A stretch of DNA of 20,731 bases from Terrimicrobiaceae bacterium (GCA_044342325.1 JBIIPZ010000044.1:1-20731); one strand, 5' to 3'; positions 4,926 to 20,731 are shown, counted from the stretch's first letter. The notes: generated by a model from the sequence alone, not told the origin. Numbers and translations: made by a program.

Positions 4926-4954
4926 TTGACCCGCCGCTCTGAGTGCCCGATAGT
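4926..4954 (+). promoter_or_regulatory. Possible sigma70-type promoter for lepA
   Basis: TTGACC-17 nt-GATAGT, ending 12 nt before the lepA ATG. The -10 box is a weak match. Confidence 0.35.
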
Positions 4955-4966
4955 CCCCGGCTTTTC

Positions 4967-6772
4967 ATGGCTATAGAAAACACGCGCAACTTTTGCATCA
5001 TCGCCCACATCGACCACGGTAAAACGACTCTCTCCGACCGCCTTTTGGAGGTAACGGGAACGATCCAAAAGCGCGAGTCCCAAGAGCAACTCCTCGATGC
5101 CATGGACCTCGAGCGCGAGCGTGGCATTACAATCAAAGCCCACCCGATTGCCATGGAATACACTGCCAAAAGTGGCGCTCATTATAAGCTCAATCTTTCC
5201 GATACGCCCGGGCATGTGGACTTTTCCTACGAAGTGTCCCGCTCGCTGGCTGCCTGCGAAGGCGCTCTTCTGATTATCGACGCGGCGCAGGGTGTGGAGG
5301 CCCAGACTGTGGCCAATGTCCACCTCGCCGAGAAGCAAGGACTCAAGCTCATTCCAGTCATCAATAAGATCGACCTCCCCAATGCCGATGTCGAAAATGC
5401 CAAGCGGCAACTCGAGGACATTCTTGCGATCCCAGCCGAGGAGGCCATCCTTGCCAGCGCGAAAGCAGGCATCGGCATTCAGGACATCTTGGAAGCTGTC
5501 GTGGAACGCATCCCCCACCCGGCAGGTAAGCCCGAGGCCCGTCTGCGCGCTCTCACCTTTGACTCGCATTTTGACACCTACCGTGGAGTGGTCATCTACA
5601 CCCGCGTCATGGAGGGCACGATCAAGGCTGGCGATCAGGTGAAACTCATGGCCACGAACTCAAATTACGAGGTCAAGGAAGTCGGAGTTTTCAAGCCGCA
5701 ACAGCCTAAGTTTTTCGCGAGGGAAAAACTCATCGCCGGCGACATCGGCTATGTCATTGCTAATATCAAGACCTCCTCGGAAGTGAAGGTTGGCGATACT
5801 CTCACCAACGCCCGCCAACCTGCCGAGGAGCCCCTGCCCGGCTTCCAAGTCGTGCAGCCCATGGTCTTCAGCGGCATTTATCCTATCAACACGGCTGATT
5901 TCGAGCACCTCAAGGCAGCCATAGCGAAGCTCCAACTGAACGACGCTGCCTTCCAATTCATGGCCGAGTCGAGCGTGGCTCTTGGCTTTGGATTCCGTTG
6001 CGGATTCCTAGGTTTGTTGCACATGGAGATCATCATAGAGCGTCTCCGCCGCGAGTTCGACATGGACATCATCGCGACCTACCCCTCGGTCATTTACGAG
6101 GTGCAGCGCACGAATGGCGAAGTCCTCCGCATCGATAATCCCGACCAACTCCCCGACCCCAGTGTGATCGAGGAAATCCGCGAACCGATGGTGCGCTGCT
6201 TCGTGATGCTCCCGAATGAATACATCTCGCCCATCCTGCAACTCATCATGGAAAAACGCGGCGAGGTAAGCCACACCGAGTCCATCGACACCAAGCGCGT
6301 CATGCTCACAGCCGACCTCCCGCTTAACGAAATTCTCGTCGATTTTGTGGATAAAATGAAATCCATCACCCGAGGCTACGGTTCGATGGACTACGAGCAG
6401 GCTGGCTACAAACCGGCGAAGCTCGTGAAGCTGGAGATGCTCGTGAATGCCGAACCAGTGGATGCCTTCTCCTCCATCGTCCATCGCGAGAAGGCCGAGT
6501 CGCGCGGTCGTGCGCTTGCCACCAAGCTCAAGGAAGTCATCCCTCAACAACTCTACCAAGTGGCCATCCAAGCCGCCGTGGGCGGAAAGATCGTGGCCCG
6601 CGAGAGTGTGAGCGCCATGAGGAAAAATGTGACCGCGAAGTGCTACGGCGGCGACATCAGCCGCAAGCGCAAGCTCCTCGAGAAGCAGAAGGAAGGCAAA
6701 AAACGCATGAAGGCTGTTGGCACCGTCAACATCCCACAGGAAGCCTTCATCGAGGTCCTCCGCACCAGCTGA
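4967..6772 (+). CDS. lepA: Elongation factor 4 (LepA)
   Basis: RNFCIIAHIDHGKTTLSDR, ERERGITIK, DTPGHVDFSYEVSRSL, GFRCGFLGLLH and KCYGGDISRKRKLLEKQKEGKKRMK. Confidence 0.99.
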   Translation: MAIENTRNFCIIAHIDHGKTTLSDRLLEVTGTIQKRESQEQLLDAMDLERERGITIKAHPIAMEYTAKSGAHYKLNLSDTPGHVDFSYEVSRSLAACEGALLIIDAAQGVEAQTVANVHLAEKQGLKLIPVINKIDLPNADVENAKRQLEDILAIPAEEAILASAKAGIGIQDILEAVVERIPHPAGKPEARLRALTFDSHFDTYRGVVIYTRVMEGTIKAGDQVKLMATNSNYEVKEVGVFKPQQPKFFAREKLIAGDIGYVIANIKTSSEVKVGDTLTNARQPAEEPLPGFQVVQPMVFSGIYPINTADFEHLKAAIAKLQLNDAAFQFMAESSVALGFGFRCGFLGLLHMEIIIERLRREFDMDIIATYPSVIYEVQRTNGEVLRIDNPDQLPDPSVIEEIREPMVRCFVMLPNEYISPILQLIMEKRGEVSHTESIDTKRVMLTADLPLNEILVDFVDKMKSITRGYGSMDYEQAGYKPAKLVKLEMLVNAEPVDAFSSIVHREKAESRGRALATKLKEVIPQQLYQVAIQAAVGGKIVARESVSAMRKNVTAKCYGGDISRKRKLLEKQKEGKKRMKAVGTVNIPQEAFIEVLRTS

Positions 6773-6791
6773 ACATCCCACACCCCGCGCC

Positions 6792-7913
6792 ATGTTTTTC
6801 CTGACACCACGCTACATCAAAGAGGCCAAGCAATACCTCCACGGCGCAAAAAAATTCCTCGCCTACAAGCGCGACATCCTACCCGACGCCCGCGTCAGCG
6901 AAATCGAATCACTCATCGCCGTCCTGCATGGAGCCATGCGCTTTCGGAATCGTAATGAGGTTTCAGAGGCAGTCGCCAAGCTGGATGAGGTCATTGGAAA
7001 ATCCCTTCCTCCTCAAAAACACGCCGCCCTCCGCGAGAATATCGAGGTGTTTCTGGTGGCCATTGTCATTGCCGCTGGAGTGAAGGCGTTTCTCATCCAA
7101 CCCTTCCGTATTCCCACCGGTTCGATGCAACCGACGCTCTACGGCATCGTAGGCGTGCAGACGGATACCCCGCCGCCGAATCTCGCTGTTCGGGCCTTTG
7201 ATTTCGTGGTTAGAGGCCGTCACCATTTCGAACTCCGCGCCAAGGAGAGCGATGTCGTCGTGACGCTGAACGAGCGCACTTATCTGAATTTTTTCACTTT
7301 CACAGAAATCGTCTGCCGCAACAATTCCTACACACTCTTCGTGCCCCGCGACCCGCTTATGCGCTACTTCCGCGTGCTGCCAGGCCGCGAATACTCCACC
7401 GGCGAAGTCATTGCCCGAGGCCACATGGATACCGGTGACCAGGTGTTTGTGGACAAGGTCAGCTACAACTTCACCAAGCCCAAGGCGGGCGATGTCTTTG
7501 TTTTCAAAACCACAGGCATCCGCGAGATCGAATCCGGTCTTGATCCCGCAATGGGCTCCCAGCATTACATCAAACGCCTCGCGGGCATGCCAGGCCAGAC
7601 GCTTCGCATCAATCCCCCCACCCTCACGGTGGATGGAAAAATTCCAGACCAATTCGTTTTTGAGAGGGTCATGAGCATGAAGGATGGCTATCAGGGCTAC
7701 TCAAATGGAGGTCGCGGCGGCCCCGCATTCCGCTATCTGGGCAATCCCGAAGCCACCTTCACTGTGCCTCCTCGTTCCTACTTCGCCCTTGGTGACAACA
7801 GCTACCACTCCCGCGACAGTCGTGATTGGGGCGGCGTGCCCGAGATCAATGTCGCCGGGCGCGGACTCTTAGTTTACTGGCCATTCAGCGAGCGCTGGGG
7901 CCTCATCCGTTAA
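6792..7913 (+). CDS. lepB: Signal peptidase I
   Basis: Catalytic Ser box IPTGSMQPTL, Lys box YIKRLAG and GDNSYHSRDSR. Conserved lepA-lepB order. Start placed at ATG 6792. Confidence 0.95.
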   Translation: MFFLTPRYIKEAKQYLHGAKKFLAYKRDILPDARVSEIESLIAVLHGAMRFRNRNEVSEAVAKLDEVIGKSLPPQKHAALRENIEVFLVAIVIAAGVKAFLIQPFRIPTGSMQPTLYGIVGVQTDTPPPNLAVRAFDFVVRGRHHFELRAKESDVVVTLNERTYLNFFTFTEIVCRNNSYTLFVPRDPLMRYFRVLPGREYSTGEVIARGHMDTGDQVFVDKVSYNFTKPKAGDVFVFKTTGIREIESGLDPAMGSQHYIKRLAGMPGQTLRINPPTLTVDGKIPDQFVFERVMSMKDGYQGYSNGGRGGPAFRYLGNPEATFTVPPRSYFALGDNSYHSRDSRDWGGVPEINVAGRGLLVYWPFSERWGLIR

Positions 7914-7968
7914 ATTCAACAACATTCCTGAGTCCTCGCTCGTAAGGTCTCACACCAGTCGGTTTCCT

Positions 7969-9090
7969 ATGAAAAAAAAGATCTTCCTGACCATTCTCGG
8001 TCTCCTTGTCCTCGTCGGTGCCATCATTGGCGTTAAAGCTCTCCAGATCGTGGACCTCATCAAAATGGGTGAGACCTTCGAGATGCCTCCCGAGACAGTT
8101 GTGATCGAAGAATCGGCCACCAAGACTCTCACCGTATCGTTTCAATCCATTGGTTCAGTAGAAGCTGCACGCGGCGTCATGGTTGCCAGCGAGGTCTCGG
8201 GTAAGGTCGTTGGCATTCTTTTCCAATCTGGAGCGGAGGTGGAAGCTGGCGACCCGCTCGTGCAAATCGACAAATCGATCGAGGAGGCCCAACTGCGCTC
8301 GGCACAATCCACAGCCGACCTCAACCGCCTGAACCTCGAGCGCATCCGCGGACTCCGCAAAACCAGCGTTGTGTCGCAGTCGGATATGGAAGGCGCCGAG
8401 GCCCAAGCCAAGGACTCAGCCGCCCGCGTGGATCAACTCGCATCGATTGTCGAAAAAAGGACCATCCGCGCACCATTCACCGGACGCCTCGGCATCCGCC
8501 AAATTCAGGAAGGACAATTCCTCAAGCCCGGTGACCCCATTGTGACTCTCCAAGCCCTCGACCCCGTCTATGTGAACTTCTCCCTTCCCCAACAACGCCT
8601 CGGCGACCTCTCGGTGGGAATGAAGGTAAAAATCACCACCGATGCGCTGCCGGGCCGGGCGTTTGAAGGCACGCTCACGGCCATCGAGCCGGCGGTGGAT
8701 GCCACCACGCGCAACATCAATCTTCAGGCTACTCTCCAAAACCACGACGGCGCGCTGCGCCAAGGGATGTTTGTCGCCGTTTCAGTTCTTGTGCCGGGCA
8801 CCTTCGAGCGTGTTGTCATTCCTTCGACAGCTGTCATTTTCGCCCCCTATGGCGACTCGGTTTTTGTGGTGACTGAGGTCGAGAACAAGAAAGGCCCTCG
8901 GCTCGAGGCGCATCAGAAATTCATCCGCCTCGGTCAGCGCGAAGGCGATCTTGTGGCCATCGAAGAAGGTCTCTCAGCAGGCGAGCGCATCGTGACCATC
9001 GGCGGCTTCAAGCTTCGCAATGGCTCCCATGTCGTTGCAGGCGAAGCCAGCCTCCCCTCCTCCGCCAAGCCTACTCCCTCCGAGAAGTAA
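7969..9090 (+). CDS. RND efflux periplasmic adaptor (membrane fusion protein)
   Basis: N-terminal anchor, EVSGKV...G.EVEAGDPLVQID, IRAPFTGRLG and VD..TR. Directly upstream of an RND permease. Confidence 0.95.
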   Translation: MKKKIFLTILGLLVLVGAIIGVKALQIVDLIKMGETFEMPPETVVIEESATKTLTVSFQSIGSVEAARGVMVASEVSGKVVGILFQSGAEVEAGDPLVQIDKSIEEAQLRSAQSTADLNRLNLERIRGLRKTSVVSQSDMEGAEAQAKDSAARVDQLASIVEKRTIRAPFTGRLGIRQIQEGQFLKPGDPIVTLQALDPVYVNFSLPQQRLGDLSVGMKVKITTDALPGRAFEGTLTAIEPAVDATTRNINLQATLQNHDGALRQGMFVAVSVLVPGTFERVVIPSTAVIFAPYGDSVFVVTEVENKKGPRLEAHQKFIRLGQREGDLVAIEEGLSAGERIVTIGGFKLRNGSHVVAGEASLPSSAKPTPSEK

Positions 9091-9108
9091 ACCACGGCGT
9101 CCCGCTCC

Positions 9109-12100
9109 ATGAATTTCACCGACATCTTCATCCGCAAGCCGGTCCTATCCCTCGTGGTGACCTTCGTCATCCTGGTGGCAGGTTTCCAATCCATCGGCTC
9201 GCTGAATGTTCGCCAATACCCGCGTAGCGAGAATGCCATTGTCACAGTCACCACGGCCTACATTGGAGCCAATGCCAAGCTCGTGCGGGGATTTATCACA
9301 ACGCCACTCGAGCGCGCCATCGCTGCGGCAGACGGCATCGACTACATCGACTCGACGAGTTCGCAGGGCCTCTCGACCATCCAAGCCAGGCTGCGCCTGA
9401 ACTACGATGCCAACAAGGCGCTTGCGGAGATCAGTTCAAAGGTGAACCAAGTCCGTGGCGACCTCCCGCCCGAAGCCGAGGTGCCAGTCATCAATATCGA
9501 AACCGCAGACTCCCGCTTCGCCTCGGCCTATCTGCGCTTCACATCCAGCATCCTCAAGCAAAACGAAATCACCGACTACCTTGTGCGTTCGGTCCAACCG
9601 CGCCTCACCGCCCTCCCCGGCGTGCAGCGTGCTGACATCCTCGGAGCCCGCACCTTCGCCATGCGCATCTGGCTCGACCCCGTTCGCATGGCCTCGCTGG
9701 GCGTGAGTCCCTCGGATGTCCGCAGCGCCCTCGCTGCAAACAACTACCTCTCGGCCGTCGGCCAGACCAAGGGCTCATGGATCCAAGTCGATCTCACGGC
9801 GGATACCAACCTCACCTCAGTCGATGAATTCCGCCGACTCGTGGTGCGCAAGGATGGCGAGCGTTTCATTCGCCTGGAGGATATCGCCAATGTCGTCCTC
9901 GGCGCGGAGGACTACGACACCGAGGTGCGATTCAGCGGCGAGACGGCTGTCTTTATGGGCATCTGGCCACTGCCGAATGCCAACTCGCTGGATGTCATCA
10001 AACGCGTCCGCAGCGAGATGAAAGAAATCGAAAAAGACCTTCCCACCGGCCTTCAGGCAGGCATCGCCTACGACGGCACCGTTTATATCGAAGACGCGAT
10101 CAAGGAGGTCGTGAAGACGCTCGGTGAGACACTCCTCATTGTCGTAGTCGTGATTTTTCTTTTCCTGGGATCCCTGCGGTCCGTGCTGGTGCCCGTGGTG
10201 GCCATTCCCATTTCCCTCATCGGAGCCGTTTTTCTCATGCAGATTTTTGGCTTCACCATCAATTTGCTCACCCTCTTGGCCATCGTGTTGAGCGTGGGAA
10301 TTGTGGTCGATGATGCCATCGTCATGGTGGAAAATGTCGAGCGCCACATGCGCGAGGGGAAGTCGCCCTTTGATGCCGCCATCCTCAGCGCGCGAGAACT
10401 TTTCGGGCCTATCGTGGCCATGACTCTCACCCTAGCTGCCGTCTATGCCCCCATCGGACTGCAAGGAGGCCTCACTGGAACCCTCTTCCGCGAGTTCGCA
10501 TTCACGCTAGCCGGGGCCGTGCTCGTCTCTGGCATCGTAGCGCTCACGCTCTCTCCAATGATGTCCTCCAAGCTCCTCACGCCCCGCTCCGAGGATGCCT
10601 GGCTGCCGCGCCACATCAATGCCACCTTCGAAAGAATCCGCTCCTTCTACGCCCGCATTCTCGATGCGACGCTCAACGCTCGTCCGGCCGTTTACACCGC
10701 CTGGATCATTCTCACACTGGTGACCGTGCTCCTCTACACCCAGTCGCCGAAGGAGCTCGCCCCGAATGAAGATCAAGGCGTCATTTTCGGAATCCTCGAC
10801 ACGCCATCCAATGCCTCCATCGACCAAATGACCGTCCATGCCACCGAGGTGAACAAGGTTTTCCAGAGCTTCCCTGAGACCGCCTACACATTCCAGATCA
10901 CCCAGACATTCGGCGGCTTCTCCGGCATGGGCCTAAAAAGCTGGACCCAGCGCGACCGGACCGTCTTCGACATGACACAAGAGGTTCAAGCAGGCCTCGG
11001 CAAAGTGCCCGGCGTAAGTTCCTTTGCCGTAGTTCCACCTGCCTTACCCGGCGGCGGCGACTTCCCGGTTGAGATCGTCGTGGCATCCACCGCCGATACC
11101 GAGCGCATCCTTGAATTCGTCGAGCAACTCAAGCTCAAGGCCGTAGCCAGTGGCAAATTCGCCTTTCCGCCTATCGTCAGTGTGAAATTTGACAAGCCAC
11201 AGGCCGAGTTCGTCATCGACCGCGACAAGGTCGCCGCCCTCGGACTCGACCTCGCCCAAGTGGGAGCCGACCTCTCCGCCGCCGCCGGCGGGAATTATGT
11301 GAACCGCTTCAACATGGATGGCCGCAGCTACAAGGTCATCCCACAGATCACCCGCCTCGGGCGTCTCAATGAGGACCAACTCCTCGACATCCGCATCCGT
11401 GGCCCCAAAGGCGAACTCATCCCGCTCTCCACCGTCGCCACCGTGAAAAACAAGGTCGAACCCCGCAACCTCCAGCGCTTCCAGCAAATGAACGCCGTCA
11501 AACTCAGCGGCGTCGCCATCGTCCCGCTTGACCAGGCCCTGAAATTCCTCGAAGACGAAGCCGCCAAGATTCTCCCCCGAGGCTACATCCTCGACTACAC
11601 CGGCGAATCCCGCCAGCTCCGCGCCGAAGGCCCTGCAAAGTTCCTGTTCACCTTCGCCCTCGCCATTGTGATGATTTTTCTCGTCCTCTCTGCTCAGTTC
11701 AACAGCTTCCGCGACCCATTCATCATCCTGTTGGGCTCTGTCCCCCTCGCCATGTTCGGCGCCCTTATTTTCACCTTTCTGAAAATGCCCGCACCGGATG
11801 TGCCATTCTGGACCAATGGATGGACGACCACCATGAACATCTACTCGCAAATCGGCCTGGTGACACTCATCGGCCTCATCGCCAAAAACGGCATCCTCAT
11901 CGTGGAATTTGCGAATCACATGCAACGCGAAGGCCACACGAAACTCGAAGCCGTCCGCAGCGCCGCCCTCACCCGCCTTCGCCCCATTCTCATGACCAGC
12001 CTGGCCACCGTGTTCGGCCACTTTCCTCTTATCCTCGTGACCGGCGCCGGAGCCGCCGCCCGCAACTCCATCGGCCTCGTCCTCGTCGGCGGAATGACCA

Positions 12101-12177
12101 TCGGCACCATCTTCACCCTCCTCATCGTCCCCTCCCTCTACATGCTCATAGCTAAAGAGCAGAAAAAATCCGCATAA
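9109..12177 (+). CDS. RND efflux permease (HAE1, MexW/MexI-like)
   Basis: 1022 aa. Motifs FTDIFIRKPVL, GIVVDDAIVMVENVER, KNGILIVEFAN and RLRPILMT. Confidence 0.97.
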   Translation: MNFTDIFIRKPVLSLVVTFVILVAGFQSIGSLNVRQYPRSENAIVTVTTAYIGANAKLVRGFITTPLERAIAAADGIDYIDSTSSQGLSTIQARLRLNYDANKALAEISSKVNQVRGDLPPEAEVPVINIETADSRFASAYLRFTSSILKQNEITDYLVRSVQPRLTALPGVQRADILGARTFAMRIWLDPVRMASLGVSPSDVRSALAANNYLSAVGQTKGSWIQVDLTADTNLTSVDEFRRLVVRKDGERFIRLEDIANVVLGAEDYDTEVRFSGETAVFMGIWPLPNANSLDVIKRVRSEMKEIEKDLPTGLQAGIAYDGTVYIEDAIKEVVKTLGETLLIVVVVIFLFLGSLRSVLVPVVAIPISLIGAVFLMQIFGFTINLLTLLAIVLSVGIVVDDAIVMVENVERHMREGKSPFDAAILSARELFGPIVAMTLTLAAVYAPIGLQGGLTGTLFREFAFTLAGAVLVSGIVALTLSPMMSSKLLTPRSEDAWLPRHINATFERIRSFYARILDATLNARPAVYTAWIILTLVTVLLYTQSPKELAPNEDQGVIFGILDTPSNASIDQMTVHATEVNKVFQSFPETAYTFQITQTFGGFSGMGLKSWTQRDRTVFDMTQEVQAGLGKVPGVSSFAVVPPALPGGGDFPVEIVVASTADTERILEFVEQLKLKAVASGKFAFPPIVSVKFDKPQAEFVIDRDKVAALGLDLAQVGADLSAAAGGNYVNRFNMDGRSYKVIPQITRLGRLNEDQLLDIRIRGPKGELIPLSTVATVKNKVEPRNLQRFQQMNAVKLSGVAIVPLDQALKFLEDEAAKILPRGYILDYTGESRQLRAEGPAKFLFTFALAIVMIFLVLSAQFNSFRDPFIILLGSVPLAMFGALIFTFLKMPAPDVPFWTNGWTTTMNIYSQIGLVTLIGLIAKNGILIVEFANHMQREGHTKLEAVRSAALTRLRPILMTSLATVFGHFPLILVTGAGAAARNSIGLVLVGGMTIGTIFTLLIVPSLYMLIAKEQKKSA

Positions 12178-12217
12178 AACAAACGCAAAGAAGGCTTAAA
12201 ATACGGAAAACACTCCC

Positions 12218-12541
12218 ATGCAGTGGCTCTACCTTTCTATAGCAATCCTTGCCGAAGTCATCGCCACCTCCTCCCTCAAGGCGGCGGAAGGTTTCACACG
12301 CCTCATTCCCTCGTTGATTGTTGTATTCGGATACGGAACAGCATTTTACTTTTTGTCTCTGACCCTCCGCACCATGCAAGTCGGCACGGCTTACGCCATC
12401 TGGTCGGGTGTCGGCACCGTGATCATCAGCATCGTCGCCTGGCTCCTTTACAATCAAAAACTCGACGCCCCAAGTATCCTAGGAATGACGCTAATCATTA
12501 GCGGCGTTGTTATTATAAAATTCCTATCCCCGCAAAGCTGA
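12218..12541 (+). CDS. Small multidrug resistance (SMR) transporter, EmrE/QacE-like
   Basis: 107 aa with four hydrophobic segments. [19 protein letters not shown] carries the conserved TM1 Glu; AYAIWSGVG is also present. Confidence 0.95.
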
Positions 12542-12578
12542 GTCTGCCAATCCACGGGAAAAACCGCCCCCCCAGAAC

Positions 12579-12596
12579 GCCGACGTCCCCGTCGGC
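12579..12596. repeat. GC-rich hairpin (REP-like or terminator-like)
   Basis: GCCGACG-TCCC-CGTCGGC, a 7 bp stem between convergent genes. No U-tract. Confidence 0.5.
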
Positions 12597-12656
12597 ACCA
12601 CACCAGCGTCCTAAAAATGATTGGTCTGTTCATGATTTTTCGCGCCCCTTATCATC

Positions 12657-12839
12657 CTATGTGAAACTGCCGCAAGTATCTTCTAGCACCGCAGAGAAAC
12701 TCTGCTTTCGTTTTTTGGCAATGGCATCGATCTTTGCAATGATTGCAGCGGAAAGAAGAACTTGTTTCCTCATCTTTTCAAGTGGCTTGCGCCCAGAACA
12801 CTTGCGGTTTGCTCCCCACACAACCGCTTATTTCTTCAT
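12657..12839 (-). pseudogene. Small ribbon-helix-helix (CopG/Arc-like) DNA-binding protein; TAA at codon 4, or 54 aa if started from GTG 12821
   Basis: Manual translation: MKK*AVVWGANRKCSGRKPLEKMRKQVLLSAAIIAKIDAIAKKRKQSFSAVLEDTCGSFT. It has a WGGxRxGxGRKP-like leader followed by a beta-helix-helix pattern. Confidence 0.6.
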
Positions 12840-12999
12840 TCGTGCAGGATTGTGGTAAAGTGGCGCGGCGGCGAGTTTAGCTACCGCCATTTGCGTCGAA
12901 ATCGGGGCAGGAGTCCGGCGGATTGCTGAATAGGCAAAAAATAGACACAGCCTGAAATTTTTGTTTACTTCTGGCATTTGTTGTGCAAATGGTGTGCCT

Positions 13000-13284
13000 A
13001 TGCAAATGATCGCTTCAAGAGAATTGAGTTCCAAACCGGGCGCGGTTTTGTCCAGGGTGGTCTCGGAGGGAACCATGGTTGTGACGCGGGATGGCCGGCC
13101 GATGGCGATTTTAACGCCGACTTCCCCGGAATCCTTGATGGAGGATTTGAAGGAGATCGCGTTTTCAAAGGCTCGGCGCGCCGTGCGAAACTTGCGGTCC
13201 GGAGCTGGAGAGGCGGGTGTTGATTCGATTTTGGCTGAGGAGATCGAGAAAGAAATCCAAGCAGTGCGGAAAAGCGCGAAATGA
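13000..13284 (+). CDS. Phd/YefM-family antitoxin
   Basis: MQMIASRELSSKPGAVL...VVTRDGRPMAIL matches the Phd N-terminal pattern. ATGA overlap with the PIN gene. Confidence 0.85.
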   Translation: MQMIASRELSSKPGAVLSRVVSEGTMVVTRDGRPMAILTPTSPESLMEDLKEIAFSKARRAVRNLRSGAGEAGVDSILAEEIEKEIQAVRKSAK

Positions 13285-13694
13285 TCTCACGGCGGGATTG
13301 GGTTCTGGATACCAATGTGCTGGTTTCCGGTCTTCTCTCTGCAAAGGGGCCGCCTGGGCGGCTGATTGACGCTATTCTTGCACAAAGGGTGGCCATCGCA
13401 TTCGATGACAGAATCCTGTGCGAATATAGGGAGGTGCTTGCTCGTCCGAGGTTTTCATTCAAAGCGGCCGATGTCGCGGCGTTTTGGGAGATTCTGCCTT
13501 TTCAAACCCACCTTGTGGCGATGCCAATTCAAGGGCTCGAAGCAAGCGATGCCTCGGATACCAAATTTCTCGAGGTAGCCGCTGCGACTGAGTCGAAAAT
13601 TCTCGTGACTGGCAATGAGCGCCACTATCCGGAGAAAACACGGGGAGTGGTCAAGATGCTTTCTCCAAGAGAAGCCTTTGAGCTGGTTGTCTAA
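13281..13694 (+). CDS. PIN-domain (VapC-like, PIN_3 type) toxin
   Basis: VLDTNVLVSGLL, EYREVLARP, D.SDTKFLEVA and LVTGNERHY. Confidence 0.92.
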   Translation: MISRRDWVLDTNVLVSGLLSAKGPPGRLIDAILAQRVAIAFDDRILCEYREVLARPRFSFKAADVAAFWEILPFQTHLVAMPIQGLEASDASDTKFLEVAAATESKILVTGNERHYPEKTRGVVKMLSPREAFELVV

Positions 13695-14803
13695 AGCCAC
13701 AACAGAACAGAGCGGCTCATGCGCTCATCTTCACCAAACCTTCCACCAGGGCTTGTCATCGCTTTTTGCGTCGCCTTGGGCGGTGGGAGCGGCTGTTCCA
13801 GCTCCGCTTGCGTTGAAGGCTATGAGGTTTTCGGTGCTGCGGTCGAGTTTTGCTCGGCCGCTGGTGGCTTTGGTGACTTCTTGGCCGAGGCCGATATTGT
13901 CCAGGCGGGTTTCGACATCCAGGACGCTGATGCCTTGCGAGTCGAACTCGCGGGGCCAGACGGCGCTGATTTTTTTCGTGTCGGCGAAGTCGGTTTGGAT
14001 TTTTTGGAAGTCTTCGGAGCTGATGCTGGAGAACTCCAAGCGTTTGATGGCGCCGAGGTCGGTTTCAGTGACCCAGCGGGCGAGGATTTTGTTGAGAATG
14101 GTTGGCGGGGCTTCGGCGTTTCCATTGGGACGGGCCAGCAAGTCGAGTGCTTCGCGCGCGGCATCTTCCTTGGCAAATGCCGTGCCGCCGACGGAATTTT
14201 TGCCCGAGAGGTTATCCACCGCTATGACTTCGCCCGTGTCGCCGCGCACCGCACGGATTGTGCCTGTGGCAGCGAAACTGTGCTGCGGAGGGCGTCCATG
14301 CAGGGTTTCGCGGCCGAGGTATTTCATCGCTACCTCCCCCTCGATCACGAAGTCCGCACGACTTGCGGGATCGACGACAAAAAATTGCATTCCCTTCGCC
14401 GCATCCTCCAACACATGCTGCAGCGAGTCTTTGCCATCGGATTCCGGCAAGCGCTCGCGAATCCGGATGGCAACGCGCGGCGCTCCCTTGCGTTGCATGA
14501 GCTCCCGCAAAGCCAATATGTTCTTGGCGTCCGGCGTGCCCTTTTCCACGTCCGCCCGAATCTTGACCGTGTAGATTTGATCCTGTCCCAGACGCGAGCT
14601 GATGACCTCGTAACTTTTCACATGCCCGAAGGCTGAACTCAGGATGCGGTCAAAATCCAAAGCGAAATTCGAGACCCCGCTCGATGCGAGCACATCGACA
14701 CCACTTCCCTTGCGCACGGCCTCCCGGAGCGCATCGGCGAGCGCCTGCTCGCGAGCTGTTTTCTGACCCCCGCCGCGCGTCCCTCGGCCTCGACGGTGGC
14801 AGT

Positions 14804-14827
14804 TTGGATTTGACCACCGAGGACACC
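14804..14827. repeat. Direct repeat copy 1 (core GATTTGACCACCGAGGAC), inside the signal-peptide coding region of copy B
   Basis: The 18 bp core at 14807-14824 is identical in all three copies. 21 bp are identical to each of the other two copies. Confidence 0.95.
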
Positions 14828-14834
14828 GAGAACG

Positions 14835-14904
14835 CAACCGAGCGCGAGGTAGAGCAACCGAAGGTTGGCCCGAAGGGCGAGCCGAGCTGGAGCGAGCGAG
14901 TCAA
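14835..14904. mobile_element. 64 bp structured mini-insertion flanked by a 3 bp direct repeat (CAA)
   Basis: CAA at 14835-14837 and 14902-14904. Excision restores MKKLTLHLCVLGVLGGQIQTATVEAEG and an ungapped alignment to 17739-17787. Contains hairpins CAACC-GAA-GGTTG and GCCC-GAA-GGGC. Confidence 0.7.
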
Positions 14905-14923
14905 AGGTGGAGAGTGAGTTTTT

Positions 14924-16309
14924 TCATCGGCTGGGTTTGTCTTGGGACGATGTCTGGTTGGGGGCGGACTGCACGAGTCGAGGAAATTGGCCGACAAAAG
15001 GAAGTGGCAGCGAGACGAGCTTGGAGGTCGCTCCCTCGCCCTCGATGAAGGCCACCGAGGGCTTATCGGTATTAAATCTCAGCGCGGCGGGGGAGTTTTT
15101 TTCACTGAGGAAGAGTTGGAGCGATTTGAGGCGTCCAGTTTTGCCTGACTTCACCTCGATGGGCAGAATCCCACTTCCGAGTTGCGCTAAAAAATCCACC
15201 TCCGCTGTGGAATTCGGGCTCTCACGCGTCCAGTAAAAGGCCTCGGATTTTGTCCATGGATCCCCGCCATGGAGCAGATTTTGGGCGATCGCCTGCTCGC
15301 AGAGTGCACCTCGGTTGACCAAGAAGAGTTCGTCCAGTTTCTCAAGGCTGTCGATTTGCAGACCCAGGGCCCTGTAGGCCAGGCCTACATCGAGGAAGAA
15401 CACCTTGAAGTTGCGGTCATCGGCCTCAGCGGCGAGAGGCACTCCATTTCCATGGCAACGCCGCACCTTGTGAAACACCCTCGCCAAACACAATAAATGC
15501 AAGGCCTCGCCGAGATTCTTCGAGCGCTCGGCGGGGTCCACCTCGCTGAATTTGAACTTGCGCCCCAGCATCGCCGGCACACGGGCAAATAAACGATCCA
15601 TCCGTGGCTTCTGCACCCGCCGGGCGTATTTTTGGAAATCATCTTGATAGGTTGCCAGGATCGACTCCTGCACCCGCGCGCAGTCGCGGTAAGAGCCTGT
15701 TTCGGCAAAAACCGCCACCGCTTCCGGCATTCCGCCGACCACAAGATATTGCCTGAAAGCTGCGAGCAAGTCCTCGTGGAGCGCCTCCGGAAAAGCCTCC
15801 CCCCAGCTCCATCCTGCCATCCAGGAGATCAACCCCGCACGCCCGGTGGCTTGCAGAAATTCCTCGAACACCAGCGGTCCCAGGTGCAAATACTCGATCC
15901 TCCCCACCGGCATCGAGAACGCGTGATCCTCCAAGAGTAAATCCAGCAGCGAGCCTGCAGCCAGGACATGCAGCCCCGGCAATTCCTCATGAAAATAACG
16001 CAACTTCGCGAACACCTCGGGCGCTGCTTGAATCTCATCGAGAAAAAGTAGCGTCTTCCCCTCCACTACCGCCATTCCGTATCTGGCCTCCAACAGCCGC
16101 ACGGTCTCCTTCACCGATGCCCCGGAAAAAAGCCCCGCGAGCGAGGCATCCCGCTCGAAATTCAGCTCCAGGATTCCCTCAAACGCCTCAGCCGCCAAAG
16201 CCCGGGCCAAATGCGATTTACCCACCTGCCGCGCCCCACGCAAAACCAAGGGCTTGCGGCCAGCGCGATTCCGCCATTTCAATAATTCGTCGAGTGCCCT
16301 TCGTTTCAT
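14924..16309 (-). CDS. AAA+ ATPase (AAA_14) with DUF4143 and a C-terminal PD-(D/E)xK-like motif
   Basis: Walker A GARQVGKS, Walker B LLFLDEIQ, YLVVGGMPE and EVDFL...PIEVKSG. Confidence 0.92.
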   Translation of the reverse strand: MKRRALDELLKWRNRAGRKPLVLRGARQVGKSHLARALAAEAFEGILELNFERDASLAGLFSGASVKETVRLLEARYGMAVVEGKTLLFLDEIQAAPEVFAKLRYFHEELPGLHVLAAGSLLDLLLEDHAFSMPVGRIEYLHLGPLVFEEFLQATGRAGLISWMAGWSWGEAFPEALHEDLLAAFRQYLVVGGMPEAVAVFAETGSYRDCARVQESILATYQDDFQKYARRVQKPRMDRLFARVPAMLGRKFKFSEVDPAERSKNLGEALHLLCLARVFHKVRRCHGNGVPLAAEADDRNFKVFFLDVGLAYRALGLQIDSLEKLDELFLVNRGALCEQAIAQNLLHGGDPWTKSEAFYWTRESPNSTAEVDFLAQLGSGILPIEVKSGKTGRLKSLQLFLSEKNSPAALRFNTDKPSVAFIEGEGATSKLVSLPLPFVGQFPRLVQSAPNQTSSQDKPSR

Positions 16310-16379
16310 TTGCGCTATTTTAGCAGGTTATTTTAACATTAAAAAGGTAATTTAGGTAGGTGAAATTTCGTGAATTGCC

Positions 16380-16430
16380 TTGGATTTGACCACCGAGGAC
16401 TGAGAGCGAGAGGTGGTAATTAGCTTTTCG
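16380..16430. repeat. Direct repeat copy 2: decayed duplicate of the copy B 5' end
   Basis: TTGGATTTGACCACCGAGGAC at 16380-16400 is identical to 14804-14824. The minus strand reads LSVLGGQIQG. Gapped similarity continues to ~16430. Confidence 0.9.
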
Positions 16431-16569
16431 ATGTGAGATTGCGTGACATCATGTGAGATTTTTTTAATTCAGATAACGGGCGGAGACATAGTGGTTCAGA
16501 ATGATTTTGCCGCCCTTTGCTTTGAGTGGAATATGCATGATTATATGGATCTGCCAAAAATCTTCTTGC

Positions 16570-16597
16570 TTGACATGAGGGCGACTAAATGTAAAAT
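16570..16597 (+). promoter_or_regulatory. Sigma70-type promoter for the second AAA-DUF4143 gene; transcript probably near-leaderless
   Basis: TTGACA (16570-16575)-16 nt-TAAAAT (16592-16597), 9 nt before ATG 16607. Confidence 0.65.
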
Positions 16598-16606
16598 TCA
16601 CTTGCA

Positions 16607-17737
16607 ATGATTACTCGGCCTATTTGGATTCAGCGTTTGGAGAGGGCATGGCAAGAGGTGCCCTTGGTGTGGCTGGCGGGTGTGCGGCGCGTGGGCAAGA
16701 CTGTTCTGGCCAAGGAATTTGGCGATTCGGAGTTCCTGAACTGCGATTTGCCTGGAGAGGCATGGCGGTTGGAGGATCCCGAGGCGTTTTTCAAGTCTGT
16801 GCGCAAACCGCTGGTGGTTCTCGACGAGGTCCACCAACTGCCCGACCCGAGTCGGATTTTGAAAATTGCGACGGACGCCTTCCCGCATTTGCGCGTGCTG
16901 GCGACTGGATCTTCGACGCTTGCAGCGAGCCGGAAGTTTCGAGACACGCTCACAGGGCGGAAGCGCGTGGTGGCTCTCACTCCTGTGCTGGCCGAGGAAA
17001 TGGAGGCTTTCGGCATCGCGGATATGGAAGCGCGCGTTTTGCGAGGAGGTCTGCCGCCGGCCCTCCTGCGGGATGGCCCGGACTGGGAGTTTTATTCCGA
17101 GTGGCTCGATTCGTATTTCGCGAGGGATGTCCAGGAGCTTTTCCATGTCGGAAAACGGGCCGAGTTTTTGCGGATGGTATCGCTGGTTCTCCGGCAGAGC
17201 GGCGGGTTGCTGGAGATCACGAGCTTGGCGAAGCACACCGGAGCGAGTCGGCCAACCGTGATGACCTGGCTCGATGTGCTGCAAATCACGCAAGTCGCCC
17301 GTCTGGTGCGGCCCTTTTCCGGCGGAGGCCGCCGCGAGATCATTGCGCAGCCGAAGCTCTACGCTTTCGACACGGGATTCGTGTGCCATGCGCGGGGATG
17401 GGACCGATTGAAGCCCGAAGACCTTGGATTTCTTTGGGAGCATTTGGTCTTGGACACGCTTGTGGCTGCACCGGCGCGAGAAATTCTGTTCTGGAGGGAC
17501 AAATCCCAACGCGAAATCGACTTCGTTGTTCCCCGATCGAGAGATGCCGTGGACGCCATCGAATGCAAATGGACTCCCTCGGCGTTCGAACCGGAAAACC
17601 TCTCCGCATTCCGATCCATTTATCCTAGCGGCCGCAATGTTGTTTGCTGTCCGAATCTCGCAAAACCCTATCAGCGACACTTTGGTGATTTGCTCGTCGA
17701 GTTCATGAACGCAAAAGACCTGCGGGTTTTTATTTAA
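16607..17737 (+). CDS. AAA+ ATPase (AAA_14) with DUF4143 and a C-terminal PD-(D/E)xK-like motif
   Basis: Walker A GVRRVGKT, Walker B VVLDEVH, ATGSS, PKLYAFDTG and EIDFVV...AIECKW. Confidence 0.92.
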   Translation: MITRPIWIQRLERAWQEVPLVWLAGVRRVGKTVLAKEFGDSEFLNCDLPGEAWRLEDPEAFFKSVRKPLVVLDEVHQLPDPSRILKIATDAFPHLRVLATGSSTLAASRKFRDTLTGRKRVVALTPVLAEEMEAFGIADMEARVLRGGLPPALLRDGPDWEFYSEWLDSYFARDVQELFHVGKRAEFLRMVSLVLRQSGGLLEITSLAKHTGASRPTVMTWLDVLQITQVARLVRPFSGGGRREIIAQPKLYAFDTGFVCHARGWDRLKPEDLGFLWEHLVLDTLVAAPAREILFWRDKSQREIDFVVPRSRDAVDAIECKWTPSAFEPENLSAFRSIYPSGRNVVCCPNLAKPYQRHFGDLLVEFMNAKDLRVFI

Positions 17738-17738
17738 T

Positions 17739-17787
17739 GATTTGACCACCGAGGACACCAAGAATACGGAGGTTGAGATTCAGTTTC
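17739..17787. repeat. Direct repeat copy 3: decayed duplicate of the copy B 5' end
   Basis: GATTTGACCACCGAGGACACC at 17739-17759 is identical to 14807-14827. It matches the insertion-excised copy B at 40/49 nt without gaps. The minus strand reads KLNLNLRILGVLGGQI. Confidence 0.92.
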
Positions 17788-17861
17788 GAAGAAGACAAAC
17801 GCTTTGCGGCGGGTCTTGGCCGATTTTTCAGGAGTGGTTTTTGTGACGGCGGGAGTCCTTT

Positions 17862-17890
17862 TCAACCCGTGACGGTTTGTCACGGATTGA
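17862..17890. repeat. Inverted repeat with 12 bp arms, 1 mismatch and a 5 nt spacer
   Basis: TCAACCCGTGAC-GGTTT-GTCACGGATTGA. Confidence 0.75.
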
Positions 17891-17997
17891 CTGCATGAGG
17901 GCTTGGCTTTGAATTGTGGCGAATTCGCCTTAATTGAACGCGAGTTTCTGTGTAGGCGATTTTTGCCACGAGTTGTCGCAGAAGCGTGAAAATCTTC

Positions 17998-19221
17998 CTA
18001 CCAAACCTTCCACCAAGGCTTGTCGTCGCTTTTCGCGTCGCCTTGGGCGGCGGGAGTGGCTGTTCCAGCTCCGCTTGAGTTAAAGGCGATGAGGTTTTCG
18101 GTGCTGCGGTCGAGTTTTACACGATCGCTGGTGGCTTTGGTGACTTCTTGGCCGAGGCCCATGTTATCGAGGCGGGTTTCGACATCCAGGACGCTGATGC
18201 CTTGCGAGTCGAACTCGCGGGGCCAGACGGCGCTGATTTTTTCCGTGTCGGCGAAGTCGGTTTGGATTTTTTGGAAGTCTTCGGAGCTGATGCCGGTGAA
18301 CTCCAGGCGTTTCATGGCTCCGAGGTCGGTTTCGGTGACCCAACGGGCGAGGATTTTATTGAAGAGTGGCGGGGTGCCGTCGTTCTTGCCTGCGGTGCTG
18401 AGGACTTTCTGGATGACATCCCGCGCGGCCATTTCCTTGGAGTCGAGGTCGCTTTCCACATTTTCGGTGCCAGGCAACGCGGCGACGGCGACGACTTCGC
18501 CGGTCTCGGGGCGGATGGCGCGGAGTTCGCCACCGACGGAGAAGACATGCTGGGGCAGACTGCCGTAGAAGCTTTGCTTGCCGACATAGCGGGCCACGAT
18601 GTTGCCTTCGATCAAGAAGTCGCTCTTCTGCGAGATGCCTGCGCTGCGGAGCTTGGCGTTTTTGTCGTTGCCGAGGATGGCATCGCGCGCAGCCATCTTG
18701 CTTTCCTGCCCGCTGGCGGTGCCTACATCCACGAGGTTGAATTGCAACTCTCTCGCCGTCTGCTCCATGATGCCTTGGGCGTATTTGGTCGGCGCGGGAG
18801 CGCCATCGATCTGCTCCTGCACAGCAATAGAAACACGCGGCGAGCCTTTGAGGAGAACGATCTGGCGCAGGGCGAGCGTGTTCTTGGCACCCGGAGCGCC
18901 CTTCTCCACCTCGGCCTTCACTTTGACCGTGTAAATCTGATCCTTGCCGAGCCCTGAGCTGATGACCTTGTAGCTCTTCACATGCCCGAAGGCGGAGCTG
19001 AGTATGCGGTCGTAATCCAAGGTAAAATCCGACACGCCGGTGGAGCTTAAGACATCGACTCCGGTGCCAACGCGCACCGCTTCGCGCAAGGCATCAGCGA
19101 GCGCCTGCTCGCGGGCGGTCCTCATGTCGCCTGGCGCACGGCCTTCGGCTTCGACGCTGGCGGCTGGTGCAAAGTAAGAAGTCAGAAGGAGGAAGGATGA
19201 AGTGAGAATGAGTTTTTTCAT
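17998..19221 (-). CDS. Secreted/periplasmic protein with an FlgT-N/LPP20-like N-terminal domain (copy A, intact)
   Basis: Signal peptide MKKLILTSSFLLLTSYFAPA. VEAEG.A.......AREQALADALREAV....GV.V.S...V....L..D.I.....G.VK.Y....YTVKVKAEV fits the FlgT N-terminal pattern. Ends in KPWWKVW. Confidence 0.8.
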   Translation of the reverse strand: MKKLILTSSFLLLTSYFAPAASVEAEGRAPGDMRTAREQALADALREAVRVGTGVDVLSSTGVSDFTLDYDRILSSAFGHVKSYKVISSGLGKDQIYTVKVKAEVEKGAPGAKNTLALRQIVLLKGSPRVSIAVQEQIDGAPAPTKYAQGIMEQTARELQFNLVDVGTASGQESKMAARDAILGNDKNAKLRSAGISQKSDFLIEGNIVARYVGKQSFYGSLPQHVFSVGGELRAIRPETGEVVAVAALPGTENVESDLDSKEMAARDVIQKVLSTAGKNDGTPPLFNKILARWVTETDLGAMKRLEFTGISSEDFQKIQTDFADTEKISAVWPREFDSQGISVLDVETRLDNMGLGQEVTKATSDRVKLDRSTENLIAFNSSGAGTATPAAQGDAKSDDKPWWKVW

Positions 19222-19305
19222 GGTTTTTTTATTTGGCTGTTGCTGCTCTGAGCTACTGCTGAAGCGTGGTCTGTTTTCATACTTTGTCCTTCATCCTTCT
19301 GACTT
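19172..19305. repeat. Inverted pair of heptamer tandem arrays (AAG[T/G]nnG-type) enclosing the copy A start codon
   Basis: AAGTAAG AAGTCAG AAGGAGG AAGGATG AAGTGAG at 19172-19206 and CATACTT TGTCCTT CATCCTT CTGACTT at 19278-19305. 23/28 positions are complementary. Confidence 0.85.
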
Positions 19306-20661
19306 TCCCCCAACTTCCCAGTGACCACCTTTGTCGGGGCCTATGCGATGGAGGCGGTTGCTGGCTTTGAGTTGGCGGATTTGTTTTTCCACAGCGCGGG
19401 TGCTGAGATCGAGAATTCGAGCCATTTCCGGAATCGAAATGCCGGAAGATTCCCGAACGGCGGCGAGAATCTTCTCCTCGGTTTTCACCGGCGTTTTCCC
19501 CGAACTTTTCCCCGAACTTTTCCCCGAACTTGGTTCGGTAATCGTTTTCGCCAGATGCTCTGGCGCGAATGCGAATTTCAACCAGAAGTCCCCGGGCGTG
19601 TAATCAATGATGGGCACCGGGCAGTGGGCGGCCTGACACGTGGTTAGAATTCGCTCGATCCCTCGACCCCAGGATTCGATTTCACCAGCGCGGAAGAAGG
19701 CATTTGCGATATCCGGGTTGAAGGGTTTGGAGGAATGCTTTTCCGTCAAGCGAGCAACCGTCCAGTCCAGGGGAAGATGTCCCGAATTCCAGATCAGCAA
19801 CTTGTCGGCATAGACGCTGATCTGGACGGGTGCTCCGCTGGCATAATCTTTGTGCGCGATTGCGTTTAAAATGGCTTCGCGCAGGGCTTCCTCGGGGACG
19901 GGATAGGTTTCCACTCGCTGCACGCCGTCATAGGAGATCAAGGCCTTGAGATACTTGGCCCGGAGCGTTTCGAGGGTTTTATCGACCTGACTGAAGAGAT
20001 TGCCATGAATTTCATCATGGAAAACAAGGTCGGCATTCGTGCGGAAGAAGCCGATCTTGATGTAGGCCCCGGTGACAAATCTCTCGGGATCGGGGTGAAA
20101 GAGGAGGATTGCGGCGCGTTTCAGGTAAGTTCCATCCATGAGATGAAGCTTTTCCAAAAGACCCTCATCCGCTTCTTGAAGAATTTCGGGTGTGAGTCGT
20201 TTGCTCCGAAGAGCACGCTTGCGGAAGGCCGCAAGAGAAGACGGATCAAGATCGGCTTGCGAAACATTTGGCACCGGCACCCCGTCCCAATTCCGACCCT
20301 GCTTGCGCAGAAGAAACCGGTCCAGCGCTGCGCCTTTCAATTCCTGCTTCGTGCTGCCGCTCCGATAGTGGTATTCCCCCTTGTAGCTGATCGGATAGGG
20401 ATAAGGTTCGACAACAATCTCGATGAGATCGCACTTCTGCTCTTGCCGAAGGTTCACATCGACCAAAATCCCGAGCACATCACGGGTTTTGTTTGGAATG
20501 TCCTCCAACAATTTCCGGGAATCCTTCACGCCCACCGTGTCTCCCTTGTTGTTCTTCCCGAGGACAAGCATCCCACCACCAGCGTTTGCGAATCCGCAAA
20601 TCCATTTCAAGTATTCGTCACGCCAGGATTCTTTCCATTCGATGGATTGATGTTCGGTCAT
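19291..20661 (-). CDS. AlbA_2 (Schlafen-like) domain + HATPase_c_4/RecG C-terminal-like domain + C-terminal HTH protein
   Basis: EHQSIEWKESW...ICGFANAGGG.L.LG, REAILNAIAHKDY, NP.IANAFFRAG.IESWGRGI, and an HTH ending RIGPDKGGHWEV. Confidence 0.9.
   Translation of the reverse strand: MTEHQSIEWKESWRDEYLKWICGFANAGGGMLVLGKNNKGDTVGVKDSRKLLEDIPNKTRDVLGILVDVNLRQEQKCDLIEIVVEPYPYPISYKGEYHYRSGSTKQELKGAALDRFLLRKQGRNWDGVPVPNVSQADLDPSSLAAFRKRALRSKRLTPEILQEADEGLLEKLHLMDGTYLKRAAILLFHPDPERFVTGAYIKIGFFRTNADLVFHDEIHGNLFSQVDKTLETLRAKYLKALISYDGVQRVETYPVPEEALREAILNAIAHKDYASGAPVQISVYADKLLIWNSGHLPLDWTVARLTEKHSSKPFNPDIANAFFRAGEIESWGRGIERILTTCQAAHCPVPIIDYTPGDFWLKFAFAPEHLAKTITEPSSGKSSGKSSGKTPVKTEEKILAAVRESSGISIPEMARILDLSTRAVEKQIRQLKASNRLHRIGPDKGGHWEVGGKSEG
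19494..19529. repeat. 12 bp tandem repeat, three copies, in frame (SSGK)
   Basis: TTTTCCCCGAAC at 19494, 19506 and 19518, with a degenerate unit at 19482-19493. Confidence 0.95.
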
Positions 20662-20687
20662 TTTGAAAAATTGGTTAGATTGGGGGT

Positions 20688-20731
20688 GGTTTTCATGTCG
20701 CCGGGCGCTCAGCCTTCGGCCTCGACGGTAG
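20688..20731 (-). pseudogene. Truncated 5' fragment of the FlgT-like gene (runs off the window edge)
   Basis: Reads TVEAEG*APGDMKT versus SVEAEGRAPGDMRT in copy A. 36/44 nt identical to 19117-19160. In-frame TGA at 20711-20709. Homology stops 26 nt before the AlbA_2 ATG. Confidence 0.88.

Follow-up and report, generated by a model that had tools for sequence, protein, structure and literature searches.

We find that the right third of a contig from a freshwater Terrimicrobiaceae genome holds a stack of defence-type genes separated by the dead beginnings of a secreted-protein gene. The window considered here is the entire contig (20,731 nt) of a metagenome-assembled genome (MAG; 2.93 Mb in 78 contigs, 86% complete), and the gene that is hit, referred to as FlgT-like, is present in it as an intact copy A and a broken copy B. 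We put the probability at roughly 0.55 that this is a 5′-end displacement array at a defence-gene hotspot, formed by homology-anchored recombination with no dedicated integrase. On this reading, blocks of one or two defence-type genes (Schlafen/AlbA_2, PDC-S01 AAA-DUF4143, SoFic-like Fic or AbiE) would land repeatedly in the first 9–147 nt of the resident gene. The downstream end of each block would bring its own ATG and signal-peptide segment and join the resident reading frame; as the block supplies a new start, the gene that is hit would stay intact, and the resident start would be left upstream as a dead stub. Repeated hits would pile up blocks, the newest nearest the gene. Comparison with relatives documents the architecture, the gain and loss of blocks, the replacement start, the stubs of old starts and the block boundaries.

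The comparison set consisted of 92 related loci, 23 from genomes and 69 from metagenomes, many of them perhaps the same populations resampled; the near-identical loci come from Terrimicrobiaceae/Verrucomicrobiota MAGs from lakes. Among them, a locus at which gene B follows an LprI gene is found in three states. In the first (L046, L091, L114), LprI and B are separated by 64 nt. In the second (L092, L093, L104, L106), the shared flank is followed by a 47-nt stub, the AAA-DUF4143 gene AAA1 and then B, and in the third (L045, L048) it is followed by ATGAAAAAA, a Fic block, a stub, AAA1 and B. Both flanks of L046 and L092 are 95–100% identical, and the two differ by one block of about 1.5 kb with its left edge at ATGAAAAAACT and its right edge at GGTCAAAYCCAAGC; the shared left edge measures 11 nt, and the right flank is long and homologous. 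The signal-peptide segment of L046 is unlike either copy in L092, so L046 is not a plain excision product. The AAA1 block is found before both B-type and C-type genes, where it is 93–100% identical through position +58 of the gene, and past that point identity drops to 0.60 (L092 versus L099). One relative (G015) lacks the part corresponding to 14931–16508 of the window (a Fic remnant, stub F3 and AAA1) and has the region upstream of AAA2 11 nt before the ATG of B. The first-pass annotation, made from the window alone, had proposed that cassettes insert repeatedly at this gene's start, each providing a new 5′ end and stranding the old one; incoming blocks do bring in a replacement ATG and signal peptide, and the three LprI states bear the proposal out.

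The same picture emerges from the 66 FlgT-like gene starts in the set, 56 of which have at least 400 nt of upstream sequence. At 12 of the 56 the stop of the native neighbour lies 5–67 nt from the ATG and there is no insert. A defence-type gene lies directly upstream at 25 (AAA1 at 12, AlbA at 5, an AlbA remnant at 4, another AAA-DUF4143 gene at 2, AbiEi/AbiEii at 1 and Fic at 1), and the remaining 19 have unclassified upstream sequence. A stub precedes the cargo in 15 of the 25 defence-gene cases. Six cargo types occur across the related loci; by PADLOC, AAA1 and AAA2 match the candidate defence system PDC-S01 (468.1 and 172 bits), which makes them predicted defence genes only, the Fic protein falls near SoFic, and a gene pair in L037 is AbiE. 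Where cargo differs between loci, similarity starts at the ATG. Relatives with differing cargo or an empty site were what the insertion idea had called for, and they were found, with breakpoints within the first 9–147 nt of the gene. The breakpoints cluster, though not on one nucleotide: stubs end at nt 9–11 (Fic, L045), 105 (AlbA) and 147 (AbiE), and four cargo types (Fic in L032, an AAA gene in L036, AAA1 and AAA2) end at about nt 54–61, at the outer end of a dispersed repeat, REP-1, and at the predicted signal-peptidase site; other loci use other sequences. Direct repeats containing the target gene's end, resembling attL/attR, are present across gene starts (44–133 nt), and orphaned ends of one resident gene are stacked beside its live copy with modules in between, both in the window (F1, F2, F4 and F3; Table 1) and in the LprI series.

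Whether the stubs are real gene starts can be judged from their orthologues. The F1-type stub is complete in five other assemblies; in L033, L035, L062 and L117 it runs for 106 nt from ATG to codon 35, adjoins the stop of an upstream operon gene of 212 aa (two bases lie between that stop and the stub ATG in L033) and is followed by AlbA and then by the intact gene. At insert-free loci (L039, L064, L070, L086) the FlgT-like gene itself occupies the stub's position, 5 nt separating stop and ATG. On these alignments, F1 is a true dead 5′ gene start, as had been claimed for 20688–20731; it also carries an in-frame TGA. The stub before AAA1 in L045, L048, L121 and L092 is likewise a full start, from ATG or ATTG through ...CAAATCCAAG, and by the same comparison F3-type stubs are real gene starts. 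F2 continues for about 15 nt past REP-1 into gene-like sequence; alone it is ambiguous because the interiors of REP-1 resemble this extension. F4 ends at the junction at which GCC is followed by CGTYATCTGA, as does the Fic block in L032. The original list of dead fragments stands for F1 and F3, less clearly for F2, and had overlooked F4 at 16479–16508, and of the fragment placed at 16430–16380 the F3 part holds, the upstream part being the start of a deleted Fic gene. One further candidate, in L105, was rejected as a stub; it is the start of another MKKL... gene that is LprI-like.

These observations also bear on the possibility that there is no insertion logic at all, the stubs being what decay has left of tandem paralogues, together with chance copies of a dispersed repeat, and the accessory genes having arrived by unrelated routes. 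The FlgT-like genes are indeed a multi-copy family, 3′ fragments and one internally deleted copy are known (L039, L053, L121), and REP-1 is dispersed genome-wide. However, the 5′ stubs are all 147 nt or less of a gene of about 1,220 nt, their places are exactly the native operon positions, whole blocks are present or absent between near-identical genomes, and the same pattern is found at single-copy genes (bioD/DUF4139, described below). We therefore disfavor this explanation and consider it very unlikely.

The architecture is not confined to FlgT-like genes. A self-BLAST of the genome (G000), in which hits on C37, C60, C69, C5, C74 and at C70:52830 were annotated but not among the counted instances, revealed it at unrelated genes on two other contigs, as the insertion idea had anticipated. 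At C67:11107–15309 (L148), bioD is followed by a dead copy of the next gene (−37 to +96), an AlbA_2/HATPase_c_4 gene (612 aa), a second copy and the intact secreted DUF4139 gene. The 133-nt duplication takes in both the stop of bioD and the start of DUF4139, the dead copy's ATG overlaps the bioD stop, the repeats are 89% identical over 136 nt, and the alignment is that of a clean duplication. The insert is present in G000 and G048 and missing from seven relatives, where bioD abuts the gene. At C52:17683–22612 (L169), two Fic genes are preceded by a dead copy, 76 nt long, of positions −43 to +33 of an AEP-TOTE primase-helicase gene; G005 and G045 lack the Fic genes, and other relatives have other upstream contexts, with similarity starting near codon 6. 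The junction sequences on C67 and C52 are unrelated and contain no REP-1. As the target on C52 is a cytoplasmic primase-helicase, the phenomenon is not specific to signal peptides, and the earlier proposal that a signal-peptide coding sequence as such serves as attachment site is not supported. A 3′-end version was seen twice: a 281-nt copy of the 3′ end of a secreted gene beyond two or three inserted open reading frames (ORFs; C12 has the second case) at C35:12007–14735, and a 209-nt copy of the 3′ end of an Rrf2 gene beyond a Bro-N gene at C12:38268–40183. Two other self-BLAST candidates, on C71 and C78, were paralogous genes or shared leaders and had no stubs. Judged by alignment, the stub–cargo architecture is real and recurrent.

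We also considered that the arrangement could be a chimera assembled from mixed strains. The source is a MAG of 78 contigs, this contig ends inside a repeat, and many related contigs break at this locus. Nevertheless, the junctions of the window are seen again in other, independent assemblies and samples: a contig from one lake metagenome (run X1) spans 14852–18155 with 0 differences, another (X2) spans 15771–18155 with 1 difference, and the repeats are 84–95% identical rather than exact. An artefact is thus the least probable of the explanations considered. In a further run (X4), contig joints from 16462 to 18000 and from 16974 to 12959 represent alternative arrangements, as in G001 and G015.

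Many of the junctions involve a small repeat. The window contains a 26-nt repeat in three copies with a 16-nt core that is exact in all three; in this genome the exact 16-mer is confined to the contig, and an nhmmer profile built from the core finds 70 half-sites (E≤0.01) on 33 of the 78 contigs. This repeat, REP-1, is about 35 nt long and consists of three CTCYGTG units followed by GGTYAA (consensus CCTCYGTGCTCTCYGTGTCCTCYGTGGTYAAW). Twenty minus/plus pairs, about 18 of them distinct, were listed, forming inverted doublets of 130–160 nt, the arrangement of a repetitive extragenic palindromic (REP) sequence, that is, a short dispersed repeat often found as inverted doublets. Read in frame, REP-1 codes for L-C-V-L-C-V-L-G-G-Q-I, the predicted hydrophobic core of the signal peptide of the FlgT-like protein. 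REP-1 is present at 31 of 67 FlgT-like 5′ ends, a second type (TSSFLLLTS) at 11 and neither at 25, and closely related genomes have unrelated signal-peptide segments between the conserved ATGAAAAAACT and CAAGCC. The TSSFLLLTS type was rejected as a dispersed repeat in this genome, as only two weak sites lie outside the gene. The first-pass annotation had named, as grounds for giving up its idea, a core that is a high-copy dispersed element with no link to gene starts; the core is indeed high-copy, yet it is linked to gene starts. F2 and F3 consist largely of REP-1. A separate dispersed element of about 66 nt, TGACTCGCTCGC...CTCGCGCTCGG with GCCCTTCGGGC hairpins, has one copy in the window (14838–14903) and eight others in the genome, several nested inside REP-1 copies (copies at C2:5090, C9:46002, C9:46783, C38:49358, C36:44023, C40:7825 and C63:34186); its read depth in four lake metagenomes is 10–20 times that of its flanks.

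The exact 16-nt core is one of several points in favor of a dedicated enzyme. The array had initially been called integron-like, and an integron-like system would have a recombinase (tyrosine, Y1/REP-associated or other) moving circular single-gene cassettes in trans, with a REP-derived signal-peptide sequence as attachment site. The stub ends for Fic (L032), the distant AAA gene (L036), AAA1 and AAA2 are all no more than about 8 nt away from REP-1's outer end, which is also the sequence found at the right edge of the AAA1 block, and the 16-nt core is exact in three copies. The genome also encodes an integron integrase (C30:1921–3032, L147; TIGR02249, 417.5 bits versus a cut-off of 265) and has three Y1_Tnp matches (C70:85171, C52:26097, C9:58623). 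On either side of the intI gene lies a REP-1 half-site, the two being in direct orientation, and a half-site just upstream of intI is found in G000, G007, G008 and G049. Orthologues with at least 90% identity occur in at least nine genus members; as these genomes are close kin, we draw no conclusion from the co-presence of intI and FlgT-like loci. Other breaks, however, lie at nt 9–11, 105 and 147, and the C67 and C52 junctions lack REP-1. The stubs are single direct arms without the inverted partner needed for an attC-like hairpin (RYYYAAC...GTTRRRY), as judged without an attC covariance model, and no intI gene heads the array within the contig. In G008 (C29, L144:9040–18200) the intI orthologue heads a classical array of at least eight small cassettes with co-oriented ORFs, whose attC sites (GCTAAC...GTTAGGC; e.g. 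L144:15997–16174) are unrelated to REP-1 and to the junctions. We rejected an integron link, and membership of the array among integrons is not supported. A link to a REP-associated transposase (RAYT) was rejected as well, the closest REP-1 to any Y1_Tnp gene being 2.6 kb away, and none of the 11 other AAA-DUF4143 matches in the genome has REP-1 within 2 kb (coordinates compared by eye), which argues against REP-1 as a general companion of these genes. When the whole genome was searched for the Phage_integrase and Y1_Tnp families, neither had a match on this contig, in line with the earlier observation that the window has no integrase or transposase, although the contig is short and linkage beyond its ends is possible. 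No integrase is encoded in any block examined, each consisting of one or two defence genes, and the searches made tied no recombinase to the stub–cargo pattern, so the unlinked recombinase that the first-pass annotation had suggested looking for did not turn up. Overall we find the integron-like version improbable. We hold much the same view of a non-integron system acting in trans, which would shuttle defence cassettes between gene starts with the REP-derived outer end as its att site and the 76–133-nt duplications as its footprints.

Circles could also arise without a dedicated enzyme. RecA could excise a circle between a stub and the live start, with re-entry by single crossover in the manner of Campbell, the first duplication being due to a rare error in replication or repair. 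Every block has direct repeats of the 5′ segment on its two flanks, the insert-free states are the leftovers expected of excision, and the two edges of the AAA1 block match each other. Against this, L046 has a signal-peptide segment unlike either repeat of L092, and the contigs of four lake metagenome runs (X1–X4) contain no sound circular block junction, rare forms being invisible in contigs; the circular junctions foreseen earlier were thus not recovered. Two backward joints in X4 (20703 to 19133 and 20670 to 19122) were rejected as evidence of circles; they are best explained by the upstream part of F1 being absent from the window, so that this part aligns to the start of copy A. Cycling as the general explanation seems to us somewhat less probable still than an enzyme acting in trans.

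We favor homology-anchored displacement, for which we infer both an enzymology and a role for selection. The blocks would not be self-mobile, and no dedicated integrase would act on them. One join would be anchored by homology with the resident gene, and the other would form either at microhomology or in the 35–58-nt REP-like repeat, many copies of which code for the signal peptide. Either homology-facilitated illegitimate recombination or a Campbell-type exchange involving the two duplicated ends could be at work. In tight operons selection would keep only insertions that duplicate a gene boundary; as only these spare both neighbours, this would explain why the stubs are all short gene ends. 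Several points weigh against this explanation. Recombination was never observed directly, the evidence consisting of sequence outcomes in MAG and metagenome contigs, and many of the loci are perhaps samples of one population. A homology of 35–58 nt is short for RecA, and copies A and B are only 65–78% identical in their 5′ third, which makes weak anchors between paralogues. One-sided homology does not account for the first event behind the clean 76–133-nt duplications on C67 and C52. The stubs of four cargo types end at one place, and both edges of the AAA1 block carry the same sequence, the right edge being the sequence at which stubs end; this is the outcome expected of a site-specific enzyme. 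In F2 and F3, finally, a core of 16–21 nt is perfect and the remainder of the stub has decayed, which may point to a constrained core or to gene conversion.

The features of the array and its immediate neighbour are collected in Table 1. Gene content and order on the minus strand agree with the first-pass annotation (Pfam), and so do its tight junctions. F1, which is cut off by the contig end at 20731, lies 26 nt from the ATG of the AlbA_2 gene at 20661, and 69 nt separate AlbA_2 from copy A. The copy A stop and F2 are 210 nt apart, F2 is 1 nt from the AAA2 stop (TAA, 17737), and the AAA1 stop and the copy B ATG overlap as ATGA (14924–14927). Cassettes occur in both orientations, AAA2 being the only plus-strand cargo of the three. 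A sigma-70-like site precedes AAA2 (16570–16597); the promoter scan gave 2 sites against 2.1 expected, and a promoter in each block is therefore unsupported.

Table 1. Features of the displacement array and its neighbour in the 20,731-nt window.
Feature	Position	Strand	Basis or remark
F1, dead 5′ stub of FlgT-like gene (about codons 21–35, in-frame TGA)	20685–20731	−	84% over 44 nt to copy A
Cargo 1, SLFN_AlbA_2 + HATPase_c_4 + winged helix-turn-helix gene	19291–20661	−	Pfam; weak PADLOC matches to Schlafen regions associated with prokaryotic Argonaute (pAgo)
Replacement upstream region, ATG and signal peptide delivered with AlbA block	19113–19290	−	Repeat of F1 at 19113–19156, 84% over 44 nt
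FlgT-like copy A, intact, 407 aa, secreted	17998–19221	−	Weak FlgT_N; low-confidence fold model
F2, dead stub, gene codons 3–18, start codon lost, mostly REP-1 half-site	17739–17787	−	Junction also in L043, L071, L033, L040
Cargo 2, AAA2 (AAA_14-DUF4143), opposite orientation	16607–17737	+	Pfam; PADLOC PDC-S01
F4, dead 5′ stub ending ...TCCGCC, the left junction of the Fic block	16479–16508	−	0 of 500 shuffles reach the F4 score
Left end of Fic block: triple ATCTCAC motif and first Fic codons; remaining Fic deleted	16423–16478	−	Compared with intact Fic blocks L032, L045, L048, L110
F3, REP-1 end of dead stub, terminating ...GGTCAAATCCAAGG	16378–16417	−	Full orthologous stubs (ATG to codon 20) in L045, L048, L121, L092
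Cargo 3, AAA1 (AAA_14-DUF4143)	14924–16309	−	Pfam; PADLOC PDC-S01
FlgT-like copy B, broken; start segment 14904–14927; REP-1 half-site 14798–14837	13731–14927	−	Sequence comparison
PIN_3 toxin with presumed antitoxin	12961–13694	+	Pfam; in relatives always after the FlgT-like stop (type A, B or C)

Some smaller observations concern the array itself. Ahead of every Fic gene in the family stands a triple ATCTCAC(A/G)T motif (window 16423–16470; L032:8170–8225; L045:1660–1700); it is probably an operator, which in the window outlives its Fic gene. An inverted repeat of 30 nt, 83% complementary, joins the signal-peptide coding part of copy A (19179–19208) to the 3′ end of AlbA (19276–19305) and encloses the ribosome-binding region and ATG of copy A. 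Within the AlbA_2 gene, 19482–19529 consists of three tandem 12-nt units that code for an (S/P)SGK-type linker repeat.

The name FlgT-like should be read with care. Copies A and B match FlgT_N at 27.4–28.1 bits, below the Pfam cut-off of 28.8, and the gene context is one of secreted caspase/CHAT-Sel1/TPR operons rather than flagellar genes, so FlgT membership is not supported by either. The gene is usually the final one of a tightly packed caspase/CHAT operon, or it follows an LprI gene. A structure model (predicted local distance difference test, pLDDT, 60.3) gives fold matches to FlgT, CsgG and PelC at low template-modelling (TM) scores, the best being FlgT 3w1e with an E of 2e-9 but a TM of 0.21, from a weak model; from such modelling, a FlgT/CsgG-like fold is the most that can be claimed for the target protein. 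Copies A and B share 60% protein identity. Their last 300 nt (18000–18299 versus 13733–14032) are 94% identical (90–98% in 60-nt steps) and the remainder of the genes 47–78%, which suggests gene conversion or exchange of 3′ ends. Copy B carries the 66-nt nested repeat in its signal peptide, which introduces a TGA at codon 9, and has lost 1 nt near 14766, which puts it out of frame; run X2 has an extra C after 14766 at full depth, the base missing from the window. By these lesions, copy B is a pseudogene in this genome. The left two thirds of the window (1–13000) hold ordinary genes, including cinA, lepA, signal peptidase I and an SMR (small multidrug resistance) pump, as well as a SocA/Panacea antitoxin-like gene (1677–2228), an RND (resistance-nodulation-division) efflux pair (7969–12177) and a perfect 20-nt palindrome at 3922–3957.

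Defence islands are usually attributed to integrases, to transposases or to insertion between core genes that are conserved. In the present case, defence genes would gain entry to a compact freshwater genome within the opening codons of live genes without killing them, an integrase-free route, read at the sequence level, by which accessory genes could be gained where intergenic DNA is almost nil. The route is testable, as there are near-identical genomes with and without a block, edges defined to the nucleotide and clean duplications at other loci. It would also give a dispersed REP-like repeat a double part, coding for a signal peptide's hydrophobic core and acting as a hotspot of recombination. 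Should a dedicated enzyme act after all, the array would represent a new kind of cassette system.

Several known systems resemble the array in part. Integron arrays are likewise stacks of mostly single-gene cassettes, newest at the insertion point, with no recombinase within the cassettes, and an intI gene is present elsewhere in this genome; the array differs in having no attC hairpins, cargo in both orientations, one promoter-like site and a variable junction position. SXT/R391 elements at the 5′ end of prfC and islands in tRNA genes encode an integrase of their own, with crossover at a single fixed core. They too supply a replacement gene end, leave a partial copy on the far side and can form tandem arrays with att repeats, whereas the blocks here measure 1.4–2 kb, have no recombinase and use several junction positions. 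Like REP sequences, their REPIN doublets and miniature inverted-repeat transposable elements (MITEs), REP-1 is short, dispersed and often found in inverted doublets; in contrast to REP/REPIN, no RAYT lies next to any REP-1 copy, and here the half-site lies within a coding sequence, where it encodes the predicted signal-peptide core. In the papers on DUF4143 that the search returned, no title or abstract concerns mobility, and on N-terminal displacement with horizontal transfer only unrelated work was found.

The closest likeness is to the arrays of orphaned gene ends at rhs, contact-dependent inhibition (CDI) and type VI secretion system (T6SS) loci. For the T6SS/rhs arrays, displacement by homology-facilitated illegitimate recombination was put forward (PMC5361080), and rhs-type C-terminal displacement arrays are treated in a further source (PMC2935791). 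In those arrays, as here, a resident gene is hit repeatedly, the displaced ends are kept as orphans in order of arrival, and there is no integrase. There it is the 3′ end that is displaced and here the 5′ end; the incoming piece here brings a start codon and a signal peptide, and the stubs are very short (30–147 nt). The cargo also sets the two apart, consisting here of stand-alone defence or toxin-antitoxin genes and not of toxin tips with immunity genes. On this comparison, the array in the window is best read as a mirror image of the rhs/T6SS C-terminal displacement arrays, a known kind of arrangement of which the 5′-end variant would be new.

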